A DNA stretch of 64,000 nucleotides from Holophagales bacterium (GCA_031390755.1 JANMTS010000035.1:28758-92757), one strand, 5' to 3'. Positions 4,794-15,436 are shown, counted from the first letter of the stretch. Translations and numbers: made by a program. The notes: a model not told the origin generated them from the sequence alone.

Positions 4794-6479
4794 TTGAAAG
4801 TACGGAACAGATGGATTCAACGAGGGTTGACACCGCTTCTCGCGCTGGCGCTCCCCGCCGGGCTCGCCGCCCAGACGAGCCCGACGGTCGGCAACACCGC
4901 GGTCGAGCGCGCCACCCAGACGATCAACCGCCACGCCATCGAGGGGCCGATCCGCTTCCTCGCCGACGATCTGCTCGAAGGCCGCGGGCCCGCCAGCCGG
5001 GGCGACAGCCTGACCCAGCTCTATCTCGCCAGCACGCTCCAGACCCTCGGCTACGAGCCGGGCGGCGAGAACGGCACCTACTTTCAGTCCTTCGACATCG
5101 TGGGGATGGACTCGACGGTGCCCGACACCTGGGGGTTCAGCAAGGGCGGCCAGAGCGTCTCCCTCAAGAAGTGGGACGAGTTCATCGCCGCCAGCGGAGT
5201 GCAAAAGGACCAGTCCGTGCTCAAGGACGCGGAGCTCGTCTTCGTGGGTTACGGCATCCAGGCTCCGGAGTACCAATGGGACGACTTCAAGGGCATGAAC
5301 CTCAAGGGCAAGATCCTGGTCATGCTCAACAACGATCCCGACTGGGATCCCAAGCTCTTCGAAGGCAACCGCCGGCTCTACTACGGCCGTTGGACCTACA
5401 AGTACGAGAGCGCGGCCCGGCAGGGCGCTGCCGGCGCCATCATCATCCACACGACTCCTTCGGCTGGCTATGGCTGGCAGGTGATCCAGACCTCCTGGAC
5501 CGGCGAGCAGTTCGAGCTGCCCGCGGAAAACGAGCCGAGGCTCCAGGTCGCGGCCTGGACGACCGAGGACGCGGCGCGGCAGCTCGCCAAGCTGGGCGGC
5601 CAGGATCTCGACGCCCTGATCAAGCAGGCCCGGAGCCGTGACTTCAAGCCCGTGCCGCTCGGCGTGACCAGCTCCCTCACGCTCCAGAACAAGATCTCGC
5701 GCAAGAAGACCGGTAACGTGGCGGGCCTCCTGCGCGGCAGCGATCCCAAGCTCAAGGACGAGGTCGTCATCTACACCGCCCACCACGACCACCTCGGTAT
5801 CGGCGAGCCGGACAAGGCCGGCGACGCCATCTACAACGGCGCCCTGGACAACGCCGCCGGCTCCGCGCTGATCCTGGCCATCGCCAAGGGCTTCGCGGCG
5901 CTGCCGGAGCCGCCGAAGCGGTCGATCCTCATCCTCTTCGTGGCTGCCGAGGAGCAGGGGCTGCTCGGCTCCGGCTACTACGCCCGGCATCCGACCTTCC
6001 CCCCAGGGAAGATCGCGGCGAACGTGAACTTCGACGGCGGCAACATCTGGGGTCGTTCGGAGGAGCTGGCCTTCATCGGCCTGGGCAAGTCGTCCCTGGA
6101 CTCGATCGTGAAGTCTCTGGCGGCGAAGCAGGGCCGCGCCGTGGTCGGAGACCAGTTTCCGGACAAGGGCTTCTTCTACCGTTCCGACCAGCTGAGCTTC
6201 GCGCGGATCGGCGTGCCGGCGATCTACTTCGACACCGGCACGAAGTTCCGGGACCGTCCGGCGGACTGGGGCAAGGAGACCCTGGAGGCCTGGGAGGCCG
6301 CCAACTACCACCAGCCGAGCGACCAGCTGACCGCGGACTGGAACTTCGACGGCATGATCGAGGACGCCCACCTGGGCTTCCTGGCCGGCCTGGAGATCGC
6401 AAACGCGGCCCAGCTTCCGACCTGGACTCCCGGCGACGAGTTCGAGGCCGCCCGCAAGGCAGCGCTCGGCGGGAAGTGA
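4794..6479 (+). CDS. Secreted M28-family aminopeptidase with PA domain
   Basis: 561 aa with an N-terminal signal peptide (LLALALPAGLAAQ). Motifs HHDHLG, NGALDNAAGSALILAIAK and FVAAEEQGLLGS (Zn ligands of M28), plus the PA-domain region KGKILVMLNNDPD. Confidence 0.8.
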   Translation: MKVRNRWIQRGLTPLLALALPAGLAAQTSPTVGNTAVERATQTINRHAIEGPIRFLADDLLEGRGPASRGDSLTQLYLASTLQTLGYEPGGENGTYFQSFDIVGMDSTVPDTWGFSKGGQSVSLKKWDEFIAASGVQKDQSVLKDAELVFVGYGIQAPEYQWDDFKGMNLKGKILVMLNNDPDWDPKLFEGNRRLYYGRWTYKYESAARQGAAGAIIIHTTPSAGYGWQVIQTSWTGEQFELPAENEPRLQVAAWTTEDAARQLAKLGGQDLDALIKQARSRDFKPVPLGVTSSLTLQNKISRKKTGNVAGLLRGSDPKLKDEVVIYTAHHDHLGIGEPDKAGDAIYNGALDNAAGSALILAIAKGFAALPEPPKRSILILFVAAEEQGLLGSGYYARHPTFPPGKIAANVNFDGGNIWGRSEELAFIGLGKSSLDSIVKSLAAKQGRAVVGDQFPDKGFFYRSDQLSFARIGVPAIYFDTGTKFRDRPADWGKETLEAWEAANYHQPSDQLTADWNFDGMIEDAHLGFLAGLEIANAAQLPTWTPGDEFEAARKAALGGK

Positions 6480-6550
6480 GATTTCGCCGCGGGACCAAAC
6501 ATTCCCCCGCGGCCCGTGTCTACAGACATTGGCATAGCGCCAACGCCTCG

Positions 6551-6593
6551 CCGGGAGAAGGGGGACGACCTCCCCTCCCGGCCCTTTTTTTGT
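6551..6593 (+). terminator. Putative rho-independent terminator after the M28 peptidase gene (GC hairpin ccgggagaaggggg..tcccctcccgg followed by T7)
   Basis: Hairpin plus ccctttttttg seen in sequence. It lies between convergent genes (ends 6479 and 6594). Confidence 0.45.
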
Positions 6594-8396
6594 CTACGGG
6601 ATCGACTGGATTTCGCGGACGATCCGGAAGCCGGTGTTCTTGTTGTTGCGGTCACGCCCGCGAGGGCTTCTGGTCGAGGGCTGACAGTTTACCGGGGAGG
6701 AATCGAAAGCGCCTCCTGCCCTGATGGGCTCGCCCTGACCGCCCATCAAGCCAAGGCTCGGTGGCTGGTCGACCCACTCCCACACGTTGCCGAGCATGTC
6801 GTAAAGACCCCAATCGCTATTGCGGAAGGTGCCGGTCGGAGCGAGCTCGCTGTAGTCGTCGCCACGCAGGCAGTTCCCTCCTTCGCCATCCCCTGGGCCA
6901 CGGGCGGCGTATTCCCATTCCTCTTTCGTGGGGAGCCTGTACGCATTCGTCTGCTCCAACGCGTTCAACCTGCGGAAGAAATCCTTCGTCTCTACATAGG
7001 TCACGCTCCCCATCGGCAGGTCGTCTCCGCGCGGCTCCATGTCCTTCGCCGTGTTGGTCCCCATGATCTCCTCCCACTGCTTCTGGCTCACTTCGGTAGT
7101 TCCCATGCAAAAGGGCCTCGGGATGGTAACTTCGATCGGCGGCTCACCTTTCTTGCCGGAGCCCATCAGAAACTTTCCTGCCGGGATCCATGCCATTTCC
7201 ATGTCGACACCTACAGGAGACGGGCAATGGTTCTTCCAGGGAGCCCACATCCAGATACCAATCGAGAGGGCCAGAACCGACACGGCGAAGCCGATTCTTG
7301 CCCAGGGAATGGGTGGCCGAAAAAGCCGTCCGTCGGCAGCCCCTAGAAACAGGACAGGGATCGCCCAGTCCAGATCCTTTCCATTTCGCCGGACGTAAAG
7401 CGATCGGCGCGCTTCAGTCACAGCACGGTCCACAGGAGAACCTTTCGCCAACTCGCGGTAGAACCGCGACGCAAAAACAACGGCTGAATCGTCAGGAATT
7501 CTGGCTTGCATGGCCACCACAGCCGGTATCTCTTCTCTAATGAGGTTCTGTGCAACTCCCGAGAAGCGGTCGTCTCGACCTGCGCAGGCCCCTTCGCAAG
7601 CATTGAGGATCACCAGCCTCATGGAGGGGTGGGCCCGGAGCACGAAGGCAAGCGTTGCTCCAGACACAGCCACCGAGGGTTCCTCGCTGTCGCGGAGCAG
7701 GAGAACGCCTTCTCCCGTCGGTGCGAGGGAGCCGTGCCCCATGAAATGGAGCACGTGGAAGACGCCCTGAGCCAGAGCTTCGGCAAGCTCAGAGAGCGTC
7801 GGATTGTCAAGGCGTTTGATGTCCAGCTTTCTCCTCTGGGCAAGTGGAGCGAGACCCTGCCTGATCTCATCCCACTCGGTCTCCACGTCGAGTGGAACCT
7901 GAGATGCCACGTTTGAAACGACGACGAGGATACTCAGGGGGCCGGCCATTCGGACCGTGTCGACAGGTTTTGGAGATCCCAGGTACCGTACGATCGGGCT
8001 TCGTCTCCTCAAAGCGAGGAAGTCCCGTGAATCGTGCAACAGCTCGACAGGCCAATCGGACGTATCCGCGGCGCCCGAGCGAAATCGAAGACGCAGGCCC
8101 TGGCCTCTCTTGAGCCCATGCAGGGCGAGAGCTCGAAGCAGCGCAACATCTCCTGAAAAGACCGAGTCGAAGAGCCTCCTGCCAACTCTCTGAGCTGTTA
8201 CAGCTCCAGATTTGGGGTCAGAGAAGGCCAATCGGACCTGATCTAGCTCTTCCGCAGAGAGGGGATTGGTGATCACCGCGGACTTCTCCACTCCATCAGG
8301 AAGATGTCCTTGAACGCGATACCCAAGGCCCGCAGGGTTGTGGGCGATGGAAAGAAAAAGATCCGCATACCTCCAGACGAGCCGCTTCTCAACCAT
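6594..8396 (-). CDS. CHAT-domain (caspase-like clan CD) protein fused through a TM helix to a C-terminal FGE-sulfatase (formylglycine-generating-enzyme / SUMF1-like) domain
   Basis: 600 aa. Has the CHAT His/Cys dyad context VLHFMGHGSL ... MRLVILNACEGACAG and a hydrophobic helix IGFAVSVLALSIGIWMWAPW. The C-terminal FGE-fold motifs are MAWIPAGKFLMGS, YRLPTKEEWEYAARG, GNVWEWV and GGAF. An 8-nt overlap joins it to the upstream ORF. Confidence 0.75.
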   Translation of the reverse strand: MVEKRLVWRYADLFLSIAHNPAGLGYRVQGHLPDGVEKSAVITNPLSAEELDQVRLAFSDPKSGAVTAQRVGRRLFDSVFSGDVALLRALALHGLKRGQGLRLRFRSGAADTSDWPVELLHDSRDFLALRRRSPIVRYLGSPKPVDTVRMAGPLSILVVVSNVASQVPLDVETEWDEIRQGLAPLAQRRKLDIKRLDNPTLSELAEALAQGVFHVLHFMGHGSLAPTGEGVLLLRDSEEPSVAVSGATLAFVLRAHPSMRLVILNACEGACAGRDDRFSGVAQNLIREEIPAVVAMQARIPDDSAVVFASRFYRELAKGSPVDRAVTEARRSLYVRRNGKDLDWAIPVLFLGAADGRLFRPPIPWARIGFAVSVLALSIGIWMWAPWKNHCPSPVGVDMEMAWIPAGKFLMGSGKKGEPPIEVTIPRPFCMGTTEVSQKQWEEIMGTNTAKDMEPRGDDLPMGSVTYVETKDFFRRLNALEQTNAYRLPTKEEWEYAARGPGDGEGGNCLRGDDYSELAPTGTFRNSDWGLYDMLGNVWEWVDQPPSLGLMGGQGEPIRAGGAFDSSPVNCQPSTRSPRGRDRNNKNTGFRIVREIQSIP

Positions 8397-9300
8397 CGTT
8401 CAGGCTCCACAGGACCGCTTCCCAGAAGTCCCGGACCATCGCGTTTTCGACGACCTCGACCTCCTCGCTGACCGACAGGAGAACCTCCCGGGCCTCCCGG
8501 TGGCGGCCACAGGTGCATAGCGCCGAGGCCGCACGTGCCGCGCACTCGACTCGATCGTCCACCTTGACGGCACAGCTCATCGCGGCGCGGAAGGACTCGG
8601 CCGCGGCCTCCCGCTCCCCCGCCTCTTCCTCCCGATGCCCGAGCCACATGCGAATCTCCAGAGCCAGCGCCCGCAGCGCATCCTGGGGAACCCGCTCCGA
8701 AGCCCGCATCGCTTCCGTCAGCGTGGCTGCCTTCCGGACTAGAGCGATGCACCGCCGACGGCGCTCGGGCTTCTCGTCCAGCAGAAGCATCACATTGCCC
8801 AGCTTGAACCGCAGCAGGATCGCCTCGTAGAGCGAAAACGTATCCTTCCCTGCCGTCGCTTCATGAGCCAGCGCGTAGAGGGCCGCCGCCTGGGGCAGGC
8901 TCCTGTCAGTCTCGAAAACCGCTTCGGCCAGCAGAAACGAATGCCGGCGGATGCGGTCGCGCTCGCCGGGAGGAAGGCCAAGCTGGTCGAGCCGTTCCCG
9001 CGCCGCGCCCTCCAAGAGATCCCGGAGCCGCGACAGATCGGAAGACTCCAGGTCCAACAGCTGATCGCCTTCGAGGTTCAAACGCTCCAGCACGGCTTCA
9101 GCCAGCTCCGAGCCCGACGCGTGGTTGGCCAGAGCGTCCCAGTAACCGTGCTCCATCTCCGTATCGGGAACCCGGCGCGGCCCGAGCCAGGCTCTCAGCG
9201 CTTTCAGCGTGCCGGTCATGTCTCCCGAGAGGAGACGGTCCCAGTCAGGAGAGGAGGCTGTGTGGAAGCCCTCCTGATGGTGGCCCTTTCCGTTCTGCAT
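8389..9300 (-). CDS. Hypothetical all-alpha (TPR-like?) protein inside the CHAT/peptidase operon
   Basis: 303-aa ORF with no recognisable motif. It is directly adjacent (no gap) to the upstream peptidase gene and overlaps the downstream CHAT-FGE gene. Confidence 0.5.
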   Translation of the reverse strand: MQNGKGHHQEGFHTASSPDWDRLLSGDMTGTLKALRAWLGPRRVPDTEMEHGYWDALANHASGSELAEAVLERLNLEGDQLLDLESSDLSRLRDLLEGAARERLDQLGLPPGERDRIRRHSFLLAEAVFETDRSLPQAAALYALAHEATAGKDTFSLYEAILLRFKLGNVMLLLDEKPERRRRCIALVRKAATLTEAMRASERVPQDALRALALEIRMWLGHREEEAGEREAAAESFRAAMSCAVKVDDRVECAARAASALCTCGRHREAREVLLSVSEEVEVVENAMVRDFWEAVLWSLNDG

Positions 9301-10743
9301 TCAATCGAGGCTCCGCAGCATGCGCTTCTTCTTCCCGGCCGTGCGCAGCCTCACTGCGGGATCGCCGACGACGACGTAGTTTCGAGCGTCCTGGCTCTCA
9401 ATCCAGAGCTCGGCGAGGGCCTTTCGGTCCAGAGTGTCTTCAAGAAAGGCCTTCTTGAGTAGCTCTCCCAGAACCGTCGAGATGTCGGAGAATCGCTGGT
9501 TGAGCGGCTCCATGGCCCAGCCAACCCGGCCTCCACCAAGCAGCCGATTCATGGTCTCGACGAACGGGAGGATCTGTGAGCCCGTATCGCGCCAGAGAAA
9601 AGACTGCTGCCACACCTGCTCCACGTGGCCGATGACGGCCAGGGCTCCGCCATCCGGGTGGCTGAGCAGACGCTGCGCCAGGCTCGACACAAAGGGCTTC
9701 GGCGACACTGCCCGCATGTCTTCGACTCTGGAGGCAAAGTCATTGTTGACCGGAGTACCCGCGCTGTTGCAGGCAAACAGAAAGGCGATGAGGCCCAGCA
9801 AGCGGGCAGGCCCGTCAAGGTCAGCGGCCGAAAAGACATGCTCCGGCCCGGCAGCTTCCGTACACGGCCAGTCTTGGCATACGAGGGCGCCCTGGTGACT
9901 CCGTTGGCGAACATGTCCGTTCTTGTAGTAGACACCGTGACCAGCCGAGAACAGGAGATCCGGCGTCTCGTCTCCTCCGAGAAGTCGCCGCAGTCGCTCT
10001 TTGGTAGCCTTCTCTGCCAGGTAGGTCTCACACTGACAGCCAGGCTTGCCATCAAGCTCTTCGATCAGCGGCTTCAGCAATCGCTCATTGCTGACCTCGG
10101 TCCCCGCGTCCTGACAGGGGCCAAAAAAGGCGACCTTTGGACTCGGCTTGAACTCGTCCTCGGCTGCAACAACTGCCGCAGCGTAGGCAGCGAAAGCCTC
10201 TGGCGTCTCGAAGTGAACCCGCCCCACGGCATGGTGGTGATCGAGCCCATATTGGAATTCGAAGGGGATGTCCTCCGGACTGCCCACCAGAAGCAGGTAA
10301 TAGGGAACCTTCTTCGGATCGACTCTGCCGGGGCCAGCTCCCATGCGGGCGAGAAAATCCAGTTTGTCCTCGCCGCGGACATAACCCTTCTCGCCTGCGT
10401 AGATCTTGTAGAGAGAGCCTGCCTGTTCTCTGCGAAGCTTGAGCAGGGGCTCAAGAGCGTCGAGGCTCTCGGAGGCGAAGCGATCGGAGCCGGACACGAC
10501 GACGCCCCATCCGGCCTGGCTCAGATCGTTGGCGTCGACTCCGTCCTTGAGCTCGCGAACACGCCGCTTCTTCGACTTCGCGAGCCGCTCTAAGAGGATC
10601 TCCTCAACCTCGCGGGGGGAAACCGGTCGGCCGGTGTCTCCATCAATGCCACCCGCGCCGAGATTTGTCCTTGTGATCATCCGTGCACCTCCTGCGCAGG
10701 TCGCGGCAGGCGGGCCTTCACCCGCCTGCCAGCGGTTGGTCAC
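9301..10743 (-). CDS. Gingipain-like (peptidase C25-like) clan-CD cysteine peptidase, cytoplasmic (no signal peptide)
   Basis: 480 aa from GTG at 10743 (possible later start at MITRTNLG). Sequence blocks resemble the gingipain catalytic domain: YYLLLVGSPEDIPFEF (cf. YVLLIGDHKDIP), LLFSAGHGVYYKNGH (catalytic His) and LIAFLFACNSAGTP (catalytic Cys). GTGA overlap with the upstream small ORF. Confidence 0.6.
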   Translation of the reverse strand: MTNRWQAGEGPPAATCAGGARMITRTNLGAGGIDGDTGRPVSPREVEEILLERLAKSKKRRVRELKDGVDANDLSQAGWGVVVSGSDRFASESLDALEPLLKLRREQAGSLYKIYAGEKGYVRGEDKLDFLARMGAGPGRVDPKKVPYYLLLVGSPEDIPFEFQYGLDHHHAVGRVHFETPEAFAAYAAAVVAAEDEFKPSPKVAFFGPCQDAGTEVSNERLLKPLIEELDGKPGCQCETYLAEKATKERLRRLLGGDETPDLLFSAGHGVYYKNGHVRQRSHQGALVCQDWPCTEAAGPEHVFSAADLDGPARLLGLIAFLFACNSAGTPVNNDFASRVEDMRAVSPKPFVSSLAQRLLSHPDGGALAVIGHVEQVWQQSFLWRDTGSQILPFVETMNRLLGGGRVGWAMEPLNQRFSDISTVLGELLKKAFLEDTLDRKALAELWIESQDARNYVVVGDPAVRLRTAGKKKRMLRSLD

Positions 10744-10955
10744 TTGCCTTCGGTGGGATAACTCTGATTGCCCTTCGTGGTGGCGTCATCCTGAGCCGGA
10801 GCGGGTACTGCGCCAGCGACGGGATAGCTCTGGTTTCCCTTCCCTGTGCCGTCATCTTGGGCGGGTGCGGGATCTTCCCCCGGCGTGGGGTAGCTCTTGT
10901 TTCCCTTGGCCGTGACGTCACTCTGCGGATCCAACTGCGTGGTCTTGCCCTCCAT
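10740..10955 (-). CDS. Small hydrophilic tandem-repeat protein (3 x about 22-aa repeat KGN[KQ]SYP..PAPAQDD..), first gene of the peptidase operon
   Basis: 71 aa: MEGKTTQLDPQSDVTAKGNKSYPTPGEDPAPAQDDGTGKGNQSYPVAGAVPAPAQDDATTKGNQSYPTEGK. The DNA shows a 66-bp tandem repeat x3. Its stop overlaps the peptidase GTG start. Confidence 0.45.
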   Translation of the reverse strand: MEGKTTQLDPQSDVTAKGNKSYPTPGEDPAPAQDDGTGKGNQSYPVAGAVPAPAQDDATTKGNQSYPTEGK

Positions 10956-11117
10956 TGGGATCTCCTTTCAAGCATGGCGGATGCGATTCAGTCGCCCCGG
11001 TCATTCGAATAGACACCAGCTGCAGATAATTGTTGGGGGGCTGACAAACCTGGAGCGCCGCATCAACGCTCGTAGCGGGTGTCGGCGGTGTGGCAGGAGT
11101 CGTCGCTTGGAGGAATT

Positions 11118-13394
11118 TCAGTAAGGCTCGCCCTGCAGCAAGAACGCGGCCCAGGCCTTGGGCAAGCTTAGCTGGGACGATCTTTCGCCACGCAGGGACA
11201 ATTGAGCAGCCCGGAGCGCCTCTGAGGGCGGGAGCTTCTCGACCAGCATCTGATGATAAAACCGCTCCATCAATTCCTTCGTCCAGTCGTCCCGGACATT
11301 CCATAGACTGACCACAACTCGCTTGGCCCCGGCATGGAGGAAGGCCCGCGTCATTCCCATCGGCCCCTCGCCTCGCACCCTGGGGCCCAGGCCGCTTCCA
11401 CAGGCGCTCAGGACGACCAATTCCGCAGGAAATTTGAGCTTGTAGATCTCCGAAGCTCGAAGCAGGCCCTCCTGCAACACTCCCCGGTGGTCGTAGCGAG
11501 ACAGCACGAGCCCGCTGAAGTCAGGGTGGTCGTTGTAGATGTGATGCGTGCTGATGTGCAGGATCTGGTAGAGCGACAGGGACGGATCCATGGCCGTAGC
11601 ACGGTTGGCCTCGAATCCAATCGCCAGAAATCGGTCGGAGGGCGGAACCAACTTGAGGATGGCGTCAGCCTCGTCAGCCGTATCGGGCAGTCGTGACAAA
11701 CTGCCATAGTCCAACTCTCCCACCAGCCCCCGACTCTGGCTTCGAGAGTCTATTTTGACGCCGTTCAACCTCCGGTCGTCCCGGTTGAAGACGGCGTCCG
11801 TCAGCAACGCCAGTTGTTTGGGTGCCGGCTGCCGGCCCGAGAGGTTCCGTCGCATCTCCACTTGATAGGAGGCTGAGGGCACGTAACTGATGATGTGTCG
11901 ATCGATCAGTTCGCCCCGAGTCGAGGGCAGCGCGGCAAATGGGATCTGATGCAGGGCACCGTCTGCTCGAACCAGGAGTCGCTTGCGGAGCAAGGGCTCT
12001 GCGGCAGCCGGAAGGATGGCGAGGGCCAGTTCCCTGGCCTTCCAACCACGGTTCCTGTCACTCGACAGCTCTCTCCACGTCTCCGCGGCCAGGCCTTCGA
12101 TGACGTTCCGGCCTTTCTTCAGGTCGAAGGCATCGATCCGGTCCGGATTGACCACCCACAGGTAGCTGCCACGCTCTCCGAGCGAATACGAGAGGAGAGT
12201 CGTCTCCTTGTCCAGAAGCTTTCGCTGAATCTCCTGGAGACGGCTCCCCTCTTCTCTACCAAAATCGTCCAATAGAGACCGTGAGTGCGACAGGTCGCTG
12301 ATCTCGAAGGCCTTCACGGCTCGACTGACATCCCGGTCGCGCCGATAGAGCTCCATGAAGAGTGTGACATAGAGGTCGTAGTACTTCTGCCGGAAGGAGA
12401 AGAAGCCGACCCGCGCCCCGACGTCTTCAAGGCCTGTGCGGCTTGCCTCAACTAGATCGATCGATCGCTTCAGCGAGGCCAGGGCATCCTCATATCGCCC
12501 GAGGTCGCGGAGGACCTCGGCTCGGCCGAAGAGCATAGACGCCTGGGCCAGAGGCTCCGGAACGGATTCAAGAAGCCTATAGGCTTCGTCAAATAGACGA
12601 AGGGCCTCGGATTCTCTCCCCTGGACATCCTCCAGATGAGCAAGATCCGCCAGGGAGAAAGCCTCCCAGCGAAGGCTCCCGGCTCGTCTTGCTGTGGATG
12701 CAGCCTCCTCCAAACCCTGTCTTGCCAGGGTCATCTTGCCTTGATCTCGGTAGACATTTCCGCGTCGCTGGAGGGTGCGAGCCCGGTCTTCCTGGTCCTG
12801 AGCCACTCTCAAGCCGTTCTCATAAGCCCACAAAGCTTTATCCAGCTTGTCGAGATCGTGGTACGCGAGACCCAAGCCATCGTAAACCATGCCCAGCACG
12901 TCCCGCCGAGATTCCACCTGGCTGAGCTTTCGAGCCTGCTCGTAGTACTTCAGGGCTTCTTCACTCAAACCGACCGTCAAGAGAAGTTGCCCGAGATCGC
13001 AGTTCGTCAGCGCCTGTTCAGAGGGTTCGTTTACCGAGGGCCAGATTTGAAGCGCTCGTCGATATTCGGTGAACGCAGTCTGAAGCTCGCCGCGATAGAA
13101 GGCGAGCGAGCCGTACCCATTGTGGGCCATTGCCAGCCCTCCCTGATCCCCTGCGGCCTCGGCCAACCTGAAGGCACGATCGTAGTGATCCTTTGCCTGT
13201 CTGGCGTCGACCTCTTCCAGCCGACGACCTGCCGCAATCTCTTTTCGGACTTCCGAGCTGCGGATCGGCCTCTTCGAGGTCGCCGGGCGTGAGGCAGGTG
13301 AGGGAGGAGTCCGAGAGTAGGGCTCGACGGGGGCGGTCGCCAAGCACGCCAGCAGCACTCCCGCAAGCGTGAATTTACAGCGGTTAAAGAGCAT
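11118..13394 (-). CDS. Secreted TPR-repeat protein with C-terminal CHAT domain
   Basis: 758 aa with a signal peptide (LAGVLLACLATAPVEP) and multiple TPR-like repeats (..ALKYYEQARKL.., ..ALWAYENGLRV..). The C-terminal CHAT region has LYQILHISTHHIY (His) and ELVVLSACGSGLG (Cys). Confidence 0.75.
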   Translation of the reverse strand: MLFNRCKFTLAGVLLACLATAPVEPYSRTPPSPASRPATSKRPIRSSEVRKEIAAGRRLEEVDARQAKDHYDRAFRLAEAAGDQGGLAMAHNGYGSLAFYRGELQTAFTEYRRALQIWPSVNEPSEQALTNCDLGQLLLTVGLSEEALKYYEQARKLSQVESRRDVLGMVYDGLGLAYHDLDKLDKALWAYENGLRVAQDQEDRARTLQRRGNVYRDQGKMTLARQGLEEAASTARRAGSLRWEAFSLADLAHLEDVQGRESEALRLFDEAYRLLESVPEPLAQASMLFGRAEVLRDLGRYEDALASLKRSIDLVEASRTGLEDVGARVGFFSFRQKYYDLYVTLFMELYRRDRDVSRAVKAFEISDLSHSRSLLDDFGREEGSRLQEIQRKLLDKETTLLSYSLGERGSYLWVVNPDRIDAFDLKKGRNVIEGLAAETWRELSSDRNRGWKARELALAILPAAAEPLLRKRLLVRADGALHQIPFAALPSTRGELIDRHIISYVPSASYQVEMRRNLSGRQPAPKQLALLTDAVFNRDDRRLNGVKIDSRSQSRGLVGELDYGSLSRLPDTADEADAILKLVPPSDRFLAIGFEANRATAMDPSLSLYQILHISTHHIYNDHPDFSGLVLSRYDHRGVLQEGLLRASEIYKLKFPAELVVLSACGSGLGPRVRGEGPMGMTRAFLHAGAKRVVVSLWNVRDDWTKELMERFYHQMLVEKLPPSEALRAAQLSLRGERSSQLSLPKAWAAFLLQGEPY

Positions 13395-14184
13395 TGATCT
13401 CGAAAGGCTTCTCGCTGATTAAGTGTTCTCCTGGATCATTCGCGAGCCGGCCGTAGGTCTTTGCCAGATAACGCCCTGCGGGAAGGGTTCCGCCAGGGAT
13501 GACGAATGAACCACTTGGCGAAGAGTTACCCTTGAAAGAGGTTCTCCAGACCTCGCGTTCACCTTGCAGGATCCGCCCTTCAAACAGGGCGTACTCATCC
13601 TTGGCATAAGATTGAACTGTGATGGCAACGTTTCCAGGGAAGAGATCCAAGTCCTCCTCTGACAATCCTCCTCGGGTCGGCGTAGTATCCAGCACATTGA
13701 TGGCCCCACCCTCGACCGTAGACCTTGGGGTGAGATTCAATCCACACAGGAGCCCTAGCCCCCCGGCTACAACCAAGGCAGCCGCTTGAGCCCAAAGGCG
13801 AGCCTTACGCCTCGATGGCGCTTCTGGGGATGGAGCCGTCACGGGAGCGCGGAACGGTAGCACCGCCGCAGCCTGCTCTTCCACCTCTCTCCTCTCCGCC
13901 GCCAGCTTCGCCTTCAACGCCTGCCAGTCCTCCTCCACCTCCGCATCGGTAAGCTCCGGCACTCCCGCAGGCGGGGCCAGGGTGGCGAAGCCGGCCAGAT
14001 CGAGGAGGAGGTCGCTGCAGTGCCGGCAGAGCGCCAGGTGCTGGCGGACGCGGGCTTCGGCCTCCGTGGGGAGGGAGCCTTCGTGGTAGGCGGTCAGCTC
14101 CCGGGGGGTGGCGTGCTCGGTGCTGCGCTCACGTTCCGCAAGGTGGCGGATCGCAGCGTTGAGGGATGGTTTTTCTTGGCTCAC
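13384..14184 (-). CDS. Anti-sigma factor (zf-HC2 putative zinc-finger, single TM)
   Basis: Motif HLALCRHCSDLL (zf-HC2) and a TM segment LWAQAAALVVAGGLGLLCGL. A likely GTG start at 14184 overlaps the sigma-factor stop. Its 3' end overlaps the TPR-CHAT start by 11 nt. Confidence 0.6.
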   Translation of the reverse strand: MSQEKPSLNAAIRHLAERERSTEHATPRELTAYHEGSLPTEAEARVRQHLALCRHCSDLLLDLAGFATLAPPAGVPELTDAEVEEDWQALKAKLAAERREVEEQAAAVLPFRAPVTAPSPEAPSRRKARLWAQAAALVVAGGLGLLCGLNLTPRSTVEGGAINVLDTTPTRGGLSEEDLDLFPGNVAITVQSYAKDEYALFEGRILQGEREVWRTSFKGNSSPSGSFVIPGGTLPAGRYLAKTYGRLANDPGEHLISEKPFEINAL

Positions 14185-14185
14185 G

Positions 14186-14770
14186 TCAATACTCTTCACT
14201 TGTAAAATAATTTCCCAGCCGGTCCCGGAGGTGCTGCCTTGCTTGATACAAGTGCGCCTTGACGGTCTCAATGGAGACGCTCATCTCCTCCGCGATCTCA
14301 CGATACTTCAAATCGCCGTCCACGCGCAGGAACACAGCCTTCTTCATCTGCGGCGGAAGCTCCGCCAGGGCGTCGCGAAGAAGCTTCTCCCGCTCGCGCC
14401 CCAGGATGGCCTCCAGCGGATCGTTTTCGCCTTCGCCGTCCAGGGCCACCGTTCCCGCTTCGGACTCCTCCAGGGGGATCTCCTCCCGGTCCCTCTTCAG
14501 GGTCCCTTGAGTCCGAAGCTGGTTCTTGTAGAGATTCGCCGCGATCTGGAACAGCCAGGTTTCGATGCTGCTGTCCCCGCGGAAGCTCTCTCTATTTCTA
14601 TAGACCCGAAGAAATGTCTCTTGGGCGAGGTCGCGGCTCTCATCCACCGAAAATCCCCGGCGGAGAAAGAAGGAGACGACCGGGCGGTGGTATCGCCGGA
14701 AGAGATCCTCAGCCACTACACCTGGAGTGTTGTCGTCGGATCCGAGGTCGTCCGTCATAACCATCGACAC
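14186..14770 (-). CDS. ECF-family RNA polymerase sigma-70 factor
   Basis: 194 aa with region 2 (FLRVYRNRESFRGDSSIETWLFQIAANLYKN) and region 4 (LPPQMKKAVFLRVDGDLKYREIAEEMSVSIETVKAHLYQARQHLR). Confidence 0.85.
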   Translation of the reverse strand: MSMVMTDDLGSDDNTPGVVAEDLFRRYHRPVVSFFLRRGFSVDESRDLAQETFLRVYRNRESFRGDSSIETWLFQIAANLYKNQLRTQGTLKRDREEIPLEESEAGTVALDGEGENDPLEAILGREREKLLRDALAELPPQMKKAVFLRVDGDLKYREIAEEMSVSIETVKAHLYQARQHLRDRLGNYFTSEEY

Positions 14771-14836: not shown

Positions 14837-15436
14837 CTACTTCTTGGCCGGGGCCGGGCCGTCGGCTTCGATCGAGATGGTGACCTTCACCTCGTCGCCC
14901 AGGATGGCGCCGCCGGTGTCGAGCGCCCGGTTCCAGGTGATGCCGTATTCCTTGCGGTCGACCTTGAAGGTGGTCTCGAAGCCGGCCTTCTCACCGCCCT
15001 GCGGAGTCTTCACCGTGCCGAGCACGTCGACCGGGATCGTCACCTTCTTGGTGACGCCCTTGATGGTCAGGTCGCCCGTGACTTCCAGGGTGTCTGCGTC
15101 CTTGGCCTTGACGGAGGTGCTGGTGAAGCTCCAGACGGGATTCTTCTCGACGCCGAAGAAGTCATCGCCGCGCAGGTGGTTGTCCCGGTCGCCGTTGCCG
15201 GTGTCGACCGACTTGGCCTGGACCTGGAAGCTGACGCTCGACGCCGCCGGATTGGCCTTGTCGTACTTGATGGTGCCGCTGAAGTCCGAGAAGCGGCCGG
15301 AGACGTTCGACACGAAGTGACGGATGGTGAAGTTCACGCCGCTGTGGCCGGCGTCGACCTTGTAGGTCTCGGCTGCCGCGAGGGCCGGCAGAAGAAGCGT
15401 CAGGGAAAGGGCTTGAAGAAGAGCTTTGCACCGCAT
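14837..15436 (-). CDS. YceI-family periplasmic polyisoprenoid-binding protein
   Basis: 199 aa with a signal peptide (LLLPALAAA). YceI-like blocks: YKVDAGHSGVNFTIRHFVSNVSGRF and GDLTIKGVTKKVTIPVD. Confidence 0.75.
   Translation of the reverse strand: MRCKALLQALSLTLLLPALAAAETYKVDAGHSGVNFTIRHFVSNVSGRFSDFSGTIKYDKANPAASSVSFQVQAKSVDTGNGDRDNHLRGDDFFGVEKNPVWSFTSTSVKAKDADTLEVTGDLTIKGVTKKVTIPVDVLGTVKTPQGGEKAGFETTFKVDRKEYGITWNRALDTGGAILGDEVKVTISIEADGPAPAKK

Follow-up and report, generated by a model that had tools for sequence, protein, structure and literature searches.

In Myxococcus xanthus, the DdvS/DdvA pair combines a sigma factor of the extracytoplasmic function (ECF) group with a transmembrane anti-sigma factor that carries a fused periplasmic TPR-CHAT part (PMC11506125). 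In the type III-B CRISPR system of Haliangium ochraceum, a protease cascade leads from SAVED-CHAT to PCaspase (bioRxiv 10.1101/2023.06.23.546230; PDB 8tl0), and further relatives in kind are the NTP-dependent conflict systems of the Caspase/CHAT-STAND kind and defence modules with protease effectors and FGE (FGS) sensors (PMC7159879, PMC8195603, PMC12642450). Here we compare with these systems a cluster of seven co-directional genes at positions 6594-14770 (minus strand) of a 64,000-nucleotide stretch of DNA from a Holophagales bacterium, a soil-type Acidobacterium (GCA_031390755.1, JANMTS010000035.1:28758-92757; hereafter the window). In order of transcription, the genes encode an ECF sigma factor, an anti-sigma factor, a TPR-CHAT protease, a 71-aa repeat peptide, a C25-like (gingipain-fold) peptidase, a helical protein and a CHAT protease joined across a transmembrane (TM) helix to an FGE domain. 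We read this ECF-sigma-controlled triple cysteine-protease cassette as a module of Holophagae/Thermoanaerobaculia-type Acidobacteriota that signals through proteases in two layers and is fixed on the chromosome but hypervariable in its alleles, a reading to which we give about an even chance.

An earlier interpretation of the window (the sequence-only reading) had proposed the seven minus-strand genes. The open reading frames (ORFs) are present, and the gene caller agreed, returning the same seven genes, the 71-aa one included, on an independent assembly of the contig (L081; loci are numbered with the prefix L). A Pfam search bore out all of its domain assignments and gave no match for the 71-aa and 303-aa products. 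Furthermore, the 11-nt overlap of the anti-sigma and TPR-CHAT genes, the direct adjacency (0 nt) of the C25-like and helical genes and the 8-nt overlap of the helical and CHAT-FGE genes were all confirmed. The GTGA overlap postulated for the peptide and C25-like genes is unsupported, because both the database protein and the gene caller start the C25-like gene at ATG 10680 behind an AGGAGG box, which leaves a 59-nt spacer. Domains and co-location thus stood, while the small RNA, the TPR-like nature of the helical protein and the allelic mosaic described below had been overlooked. The arrangement is far beyond chance, and the same gene order recurs across loci. By hydropathy, one TM helix each was found in the anti-sigma factor (residues 130-153) and in CHAT-FGE (363-386), and none in the 71-aa peptide, the C25-like protein or the helical protein. 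The catalytic dyad motifs of all three proteases are present in most or all of the orthologs checked; those without a match are in line with the narrow search patterns.

The sensor half resembles DdvS/DdvA in its ECF sigma factor, its cytoplasmic ZAS anti-sigma domain and its one TM helix. The sigma factor (192 aa; 14186-14764, minus strand, called start 14764) consists of regions 2 and 4 only, as in ECF (group 4) factors (Sigma70_r2, 55 bits; Sigma70_r4_2, 57 bits), and scored 96.8 bits against the NCBIfam model sigma70-ECF TIGR02937 (cut-off 42.9). Its nearest solved relatives are of the RpoE/AlgU type, with PDB matches to sigma-H/AlgU-like factors and E. coli sigma-E. The anti-sigma gene (13384-14184, minus strand) begins 1 nt past the sigma stop codon and encodes a single-pass ZAS anti-sigma factor with a zf-HC2 domain (22.8 bits, cut-off 22.2), whose HxxxCxxC motif is kept as HLALCRHC in 14 orthologs. 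On the periplasmic side, the ortholog alignment revealed a linker in which the motif [TV]RG[GA] is conserved and, after it, a beta domain about 90 aa long. The third gene (11118-13394, minus strand) encodes the TPR-CHAT protease (CHAT, E=8e-57, 193 bits; TPR_12), which we take to be secreted from an N-terminal signal-like sequence judged by eye only. Its His/Cys dyad lies in H.(S/A)TH and LSAC motifs in most orthologs. Above-threshold Pfam matches together with a His...Cys dyad identify the products of genes 3 and 7 as CHAT (PF12770) peptidases of clan CD.

In DdvA, too, the TPR-CHAT is periplasmic and has a His/Cys dyad, and it has been proposed to cut the juxtamembrane linker as site-1 protease (PMC11506125); here, as with DdvS, the sigma factor would drive an adjoining output cluster. 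Unlike DdvA, the TPR-CHAT of this locus is a separate secreted protein, encoded by a second gene that overlaps the anti-sigma gene by 11 nt, and the anti-sigma factor has a small beta ectodomain of its own. Moreover, the output here is not CBASS/CRISPR and comprises the peptide, the gingipain-like peptidase, the TPR protein, the CHAT-FGE receptor and a small RNA. The three sensor proteins may therefore work like DdvA without being a member of the DdvA type. In the first layer that we propose, the single-pass ZAS anti-sigma factor would hold the sigma factor, and the secreted, translationally coupled TPR-CHAT would cut its periplasmic part, with the [TV]RG[GA] linker motif as candidate site. 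Layer 1 would be a split DdvA, in which this cleavage begins regulated proteolysis and frees sigma.

The sequence-only reading had also suggested that the 162-bp gap between the two halves (10956-11117) could carry an ECF-dependent promoter. As expected, the aligned upstream regions contain an ECF-type promoter, P1 (AACAA-N13-GTGTCT(A/T); 11011-11034, minus strand), in this gap about 55-80 nt before the peptide start, and no orthologous locus lacks the fixed-spacing motif at this place. It keeps its position and spacing in L001-L004, L007, L017, L029, L032, L061, L082, L083, L085, L087 and L089-L092. P1 is the sole zero-mismatch match of the motif in the 64-kb window; for matches with up to one mismatch, the chance expectation is 0.16. 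The single one-mismatch match in the window is P2 (AACAT-N13-GTGTCTA; 6498-6521, plus strand), which is convergent with the operon and lies just past the stop codon of the M28 gene. P2 occupies the same place in L082, L083, L085, L087 and L088, and variants of it occur in other loci. Both promoters share the fixed-spacing motif across loci whose proteins are just 40-60% identical, and we infer that both depend on the sigma factor of the cluster. Upstream of the sigma gene itself, no ECF motif with P1/P2 spacing, as autoregulation would need, was found. Most loci have a sigma70-like TTGACG...TAGGAT there, and the window and L082 have an AAC-N15-GTCT box with the wrong spacing for the P1/P2 motif. 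Since the sigma operon has sigma70-like promoters, the sensor would be constitutive and the output inducible.

Downstream of P2 lies an unannotated unit of about 65 nt (6528-6592, plus strand) with a conserved 5' part, a terminator hairpin and a U-run. The 5' part is invariant across 12 loci (UUGGCAUAGCGCCAACGCCUCG / UUGGCAUAGCGCCAA(A)CGCCUCG), which together hold 15 copies, two each in L001, L089 and L095. The terminator stem comprises 10 G-C and 5 A-U pairs, among them one compensatory pair; a simple terminator scan overlooked it because of an internal loop in the stem. The fold energy was -30.3 kcal/mol (z=-2.6), and Rfam gave no relevant match at E<=1 over 6300-6800. From these sequence features, we interpret the unit as a putative sigma-dependent small RNA (sRNA). 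Apart from the sRNA's own antisense strand, RNAduplex searches for targets in the window and 11 orthologous loci did not rise above the background of shuffled seeds, and the target is presumably elsewhere in the genome, as these local scans gave none.

In enterobacteria, sigma-E drives the sRNAs MicA, RybB and MicL. The unit described here resembles these in its shortness, its ECF-type promoter, the conservation of its 5' seed, its intrinsic terminator and its location near the regulon; unlike them, it belongs to another phylum and has no sequence or Rfam relationship to any of the three. The likeness bears on an alternative to the two-layer module, namely a general RpoE-type envelope-stress response in which the TPR-CHAT would stand in DegS's place as site-1 protease, the sRNA would lower envelope mRNAs and the operon would serve envelope and protein quality control. 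Besides an sRNA driven as by sigma-E, the RpoE/AlgU-type sigma factor, the conserved housekeeping context and the periplasmic YceI neighbour are in line with such a response. However, the output proteases are predicted to be cytoplasmic, the autoregulatory ECF motif was not found upstream of sigma, and a divergence of 40-55% between genomes with 93-97% identical flanks, as observed below, would not be expected of a housekeeping sensor. We consider this alternative distinctly improbable.

In the two-layer module, free sigma would fire P2 to give the trans-acting sRNA of about 65 nt, and P1 to give an operon of peptide, hairpin, gingipain-fold peptidase, TPR-like adaptor and CHAT-TM-FGE. The last of these is a membrane receptor-protease (6594-8396, minus strand; CHAT, E=9e-25, 88 bits; FGE-sulfatase, E=7e-26, 92 bits) laid out as a cytoplasmic CHAT with the dyad GHG/NAC, TM helix 363-386 and an extracytoplasmic FGE/SUMF2-like domain. 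For the CHAT part, the best solved sequence relative is 8tl0. The ectodomain has the FGE fold with a single Cys near the C-terminus, where catalytic FGE proteins have a C-x4-C pair, and its best solved match is SUMF2, which is non-catalytic. The lack of the catalytic Cys pair and the SUMF2 match argue for a ligand-binding ectodomain and not an enzyme.

The gene before it encodes a protein of 303 aa (8389-9300, minus strand), whose model is an all-alpha TPR-like solenoid (pLDDT 88) with an N-terminal MxNGK tail. It had been described simply as helical, which is right as to its all-alpha content and missed its TPR-like nature. The family counts 68 proteins with at least 47% identity, and a metagenome scan with the helical protein gave at least 8 loci. 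In the distant relative L097 (1111-3777), an 888-aa protein joins a stretch homologous to the helical protein to a CHAT domain at its C-terminus. Because of this fusion and the 8-nt gene overlap, we regard the helical protein as a detached TPR arm of the gene-7 CHAT, and it is likely an adaptor for it. At the N-terminal end (window 9286-9300), M-x-N-G-K is invariant and disordered in the model. The tail resembles a short linear motif and might be a protease site, with the Lys in the P1 position of the cleavage site.

The third protease is the C25-like cysteine peptidase (459 aa; 9301-10680, minus strand). Pfam returned a weak C-terminal match to Peptidase_C25 (26.8 bits, cut-off 23), and an AlphaFold2 model built from a 25-sequence alignment (pLDDT 86) shows the gingipain catalytic fold with a dyad of His248, which is invariant, and Cys304, which is nearly so. 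Sequence identity to the gingipains RgpB and Kgp (MEROPS C25) is 14-16%. Unlike these, the protein has no hydrophobic N-terminal signal segment, its 459-residue model is filled by the catalytic fold, and the window copy shows no extra domains, where secreted gingipains have a signal peptide, prodomain, Ig-like domain and T9SS C-terminal domain; it is predicted to be cytoplasmic. The protein thus has the family fold but is no gingipain proper. The family comprises more than 4,500 matches, mostly unnamed, in Acidobacteriota, Chloroflexota, Cyanobacteria, Planctomycetota and others, and no homolog was found in the phage collection. Most ECF-linked orthologs end in KKR(V/M)(L/M)RG(G), and the window copy in KKRMLRSLD (~9301-9330). 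This C-terminus recalls the [TV]RGG of the anti-sigma factor and could, to judge from the residues, be a shared CHAT recognition or docking motif. If CHAT cuts the C25-like protein, this tail (KKRVLRG) and a conserved G(I/V)DGxTG near the N-terminus would be candidate sites.

The output half is similar to the SAVED-CHAT/PCaspase system in that a sensor-coupled CHAT is encoded together with a second clan-CD protease, a small regulator or substrate (PCi in that system) and a sigma factor. Its make-up places it outside that system, since the place of SAVED with cA3 as sensor is taken here by an extracytoplasmic FGE-like domain on the far side of a TM helix, the second protease has the gingipain (C25) and not the C14 fold, and CRISPR/CBASS genes are missing. 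Moreover, sigma lies upstream of the proteases here as their likely regulator, whereas it is a known substrate there. In the cluster, Pfam detected no SAVED or C14 domains, and the SAVED_CHAT match of PADLOC spans the CHAT part only. By analogy with SAVED-CHAT activating PCaspase, the TPR-assisted CHAT would act on or with the gingipain-like peptidase, the FGE/lectin-like non-catalytic ectodomain would sense a second extracytoplasmic cue, and together the output proteins would make up a two-protease unit in the cytoplasm, a case of the widespread pair of a sensor-coupled CHAT and a C25-like peptidase. The abundant Lys...Tyr repeat peptide would either be cut after Lys as a dedicated substrate or act as a pseudosubstrate brake.

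To place this pair in its genomic context, we counted neighbours in 80 species-representative loci of the C25-like family, 50 of them with full flanks. A gene-7-like CHAT lies within 10 kb of the C25-like gene in 55 of the 80 loci (49 on the same strand) and in 38 of the 50 with full flanks; an ECF sigma factor is additionally present in 16 of the 80. The complete seven-gene order is found in L001-L004, L007, L061 and L082-L092. In a second acidobacterial architecture, sigma, anti-sigma and an 1184-aa TPR-CHAT run convergent to a set made up of C25, a secreted protein and a multi-TM CHAT. The co-location claimed by the sequence-only reading thus extends across genomes: synteny is kept in many, with about 20 loci sharing it, and rearranged variants retain the same partners. 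The likeness to the Caspase/CHAT-STAND conflict systems and protease-effector modules is that CHAT/caspase is fused to variable sensors, FGS among them, and ECF sigma and TPR proteins accompany some caspase systems there (EACC2). Further likeness comes from the C25-like homologs, whose partner in Nostoc is a giant CHAT-nSTAND1-WD40 fusion and which, on Sinorhizobium and Planktothrix plasmids, adjoin CHAT, ATP-binding or WD40 proteins as a 'C25 family cysteine peptidase'. Unlike those systems, the cluster has no NTPase and keeps a fixed place on the chromosome instead of residing on a mobile island. In its seven-gene form it is invariably flanked by aceE-yceI on one side and M28-DUF2071-isocitrate/isopropylmalate dehydrogenase-HMGL on the other, which indicates inheritance at one chromosomal site, and mobile-element genes were seen neither within the cluster nor directly beside it.

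Within these fixed flanks, the cassette is hypervariable (~6650 to ~13990, by sliding-window identity). Compared with the near-identical genome of L082, nucleotide identity is 89-97% outside the cassette, with 93-97% across yceI, sigma, the first ~90 anti-sigma codons and the M28 side, and falls to 43-75% inside it, the helical gene reaching 75-87%. The variable stretch runs from the TM/periplasmic half of the anti-sigma factor through CHAT-FGE, with a breakpoint within the anti-sigma gene at a domain boundary. At the protein level, the window and L082 share 51% identity for C25, 61% for TPR-CHAT, 61% for CHAT-FGE, 93% for sigma and 86% for the helical protein, and the window C25 is nearer to that of the more distant L087 (64%). 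Similar mosaics were observed between other loci: L089 and L001 are alike in the helical protein (87%) and CHAT-FGE (84%) and differ in sigma (61%), TPR-CHAT (41%) and C25 (48%), and L085 is like L001-L004 in C25 (84-87%) but not in TPR-CHAT (48%) or peptide type. The cassette thus consists of old alleles that recombine within a conserved locus. Across window positions 6000-14000, GC content is 0.60-0.63, lower than the value of about 0.68 elsewhere (most of the window has 0.67-0.72). Between close relatives, the sensing and protease parts diverge much as would be seen, by analogy, in immune or self-recognition loci. The confinement of divergence to these parts points to an arms-race or recognition function, and the hypervariability argues against a generic stress response.

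The variable stretch includes the repeat peptide (71 aa, acidic and Cys-free; 10740-10955, minus strand), which the gene caller placed behind a strong Shine-Dalgarno sequence (AAGGAG). It has three KGN(K/Q)SYP repeats, and its composition suggests disorder. Its orthologs (n=16, 47-131 aa) are acidic, without signal sequence and, except one, Cys-free, with 1-6 repeats of K-x(2-5)-small-[YF]. In every Tyr unit, a Lys stands 2-6 residues upstream and a small residue precedes the Tyr/Phe; with few exceptions, the Tyr/Phe of the units are the sole aromatics, and the final unit is at the C-terminus. The units would be releasable by cuts after Lys or Arg, a specificity that we derive from the gingipain fold only. 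Directly past the stop codon, in the 59-nt spacer, lies a GC-rich hairpin of 10 bp (GGCAGGCGGG-loop-CCCGCCTGCC; 10705-10730, minus strand). Its position is kept in all 10 of the 10 loci folded, with different sequences in L089, L083 and L007, and a function as attenuator or in stabilising the mRNA is probable.

These observations could be read as a pherotype-like (kin or quorum) locus. The gingipain-like peptidase would free Tyr-core peptides from a multi-core precursor by cutting after Lys/Arg; by way of an unknown exporter or kin lysis, these would reach the periplasm and bind the TPR domain of the secreted TPR-CHAT, upon which the anti-sigma factor is cut and sigma auto-induces the peptide operon. 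The variable region coincides with the peptide, its putative processing enzyme and the sensing half of the receptor, while sigma and the N-domain of the anti-sigma factor are conserved. A conserved transducer with variable peptide, processing and receptor parts is the layout of comQXP and agr, and we count it for this explanation. Variable repeat numbers (1-6) with candidate units such as K/GAYGVTTR/ (L083) and K/GTQSYAK/ (L087, L091; slashes mark the cuts), a putatively sigma-dependent promoter directly before the peptide gene, a hairpin after it as in precursor-peptide operons and the fixed chromosomal locus also fit. In addition, peptide class tracks TPR-CHAT class in the few informative recombinants. 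On the other hand, a signal sequence is missing from the peptide and an exporter from the cluster, a Mantel test of covariation gave TPR-CHAT no edge over C25, and neither the CHAT-TM-FGE receptor nor the sRNA is left with a role. Moreover, the C25-like/CHAT pair occurs outside the Acidobacteria without such a peptide; upstream of C25-like genes outside the ECF-linked clade the repeat peptide is absent, and cyanobacterial loci carry a different conserved upstream protein. We regard a locus of this kind as unlikely. In its fuller form, the locus would be an undescribed kind of system for pherotype or kin discrimination, polymorphic and auto-inducing, that recognises peptides and in which the gingipain-fold protease would excise the Tyr-core peptides, TPR-CHAT would be the allele-specific receptor that cuts the anti-sigma factor, and the second CHAT receptor and the sRNA would execute the response; this appears quite unlikely.

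A multi-core acidic precursor-like peptide with an attenuator hairpin and peptidases behind it would also suit a RiPP-type biosynthetic cluster, whose repeat peptide is modified (e.g. on Tyr or Lys) and proteolytically matured to a natural product. However, the cluster contains no recognisable modifying enzyme, exporter or immunity gene, its FGE-like domain is outward-facing and without the catalytic Cys pair, and Pfam and NCBIfam gave no RiPP matches in it, which makes this explanation very improbable indeed.

Several observations weigh against the two-layer module as well. A fixed housekeeping locus without mobile-element genes is atypical of defence islands and argues against a classical mobile one, and no toxic effector besides the proteases is obvious in the cluster. 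PADLOC returned generic TPR and CHAT-domain matches only and no described defence system. A PDB search detected no sequence match of the TPR-CHAT to DdvA. In the Mantel analysis, all system genes correlate with the peptide (r 0.37-0.58) and none stands out as its partner, and we infer every protease-substrate assignment. The framing as conflict or signalling that the sequence-only reading offered is compatible with the hypervariable cassette and with the family-wide pairing of C25-like peptidases and sensor-coupled CHAT; the biological role may be either conflict/defence or peptide signalling. The system had further been implied to be unprecedented. This holds for the combination, which is undescribed in the literature searched, and not for its kinds, which DdvS/DdvA and SAVED-CHAT -> PCaspase precede; the single elements all have precedents. 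In that literature, we found no account of the combination, of a cytoplasmic gingipain-fold partner family, of a split TPR/CHAT receptor with FGE ectodomain, of the repeat peptide or of the sRNA, and nothing relevant on CATASP or gingipain/CHAT. A word search showed that 'gingipain' and 'C25' are absent from PMC7159879 and PMC12642450.

If the two-layer module is real, Acidobacteriota would add a split form to the DdvA idea, in which a caspase-like protease senses the signal and serves as site-1 protease of an anti-sigma factor; DdvA itself is known from Myxococcota and one Comamonas only. The cytoplasmic gingipain-fold family would receive its first functional context, as partner of sensor-coupled CHAT in Acidobacteriota, Chloroflexota, Cyanobacteria and on plasmids, and the locus would be a bacterial case of transcriptional priming followed by receptor-triggered caspase-type proteolysis. 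The allelic mosaic with its breakpoint at the anti-sigma domain boundary would offer a natural experiment by which specificity determinants could be mapped. Judging from Rfam and the local searches, the sRNA is an undescribed regulatory RNA in a poorly studied phylum.

We also noted several minor features around the cassette. In the anti-sigma factor, the stretch KGNSSPSGSF was considered as kin of the peptide repeat and taken as coincidence, because the orthologs do not conserve it. In L001-type loci, the hairpin after the peptide falls within a long C25 'N-terminal extension' ORF, which is probably untranslated since the hairpin sits inside it. A short hairpin is also found in the peptide mRNA leader downstream of P1 (window ~10960-11005, minus strand; GCGACTGAATCGC); the corresponding hairpin is GGCGAGCGGATCGCC in L003, L004 and L061, with other sequences in L082 and L083, and may be a conserved structural element.

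Immediately upstream of sigma, the yceI gene (14837-15436, minus strand) encodes a YceI-like periplasmic protein. It is found directly upstream of sigma in nearly all loci, with 4 nt between the yceI end and the sigma start in L061, and may share a transcript with the sensor genes. Between yceI and sigma, the window has a hairpin (CCCTCTCC...GGAGAGGG). L001, L002 and L003 contain a paralogous second TPR-CHAT gene ~4 kb upstream of sigma, without its own sigma/anti-sigma pair. At the other end, between CHAT-FGE and the sRNA, a Methyltransf_23 gene is inserted in L088 (3746-4435) and a gene for a 254-aa protein without Pfam match in L089 (9819-10583), and this end of the cassette appears to accept insertions. 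In L092 (10743-11306), the promoter motif is located 70 nt upstream of an inserted PIN-domain (VapC-like) gene with a small ORF after it; judging by this locus, the sigma regulon may recruit a toxin-like gene.

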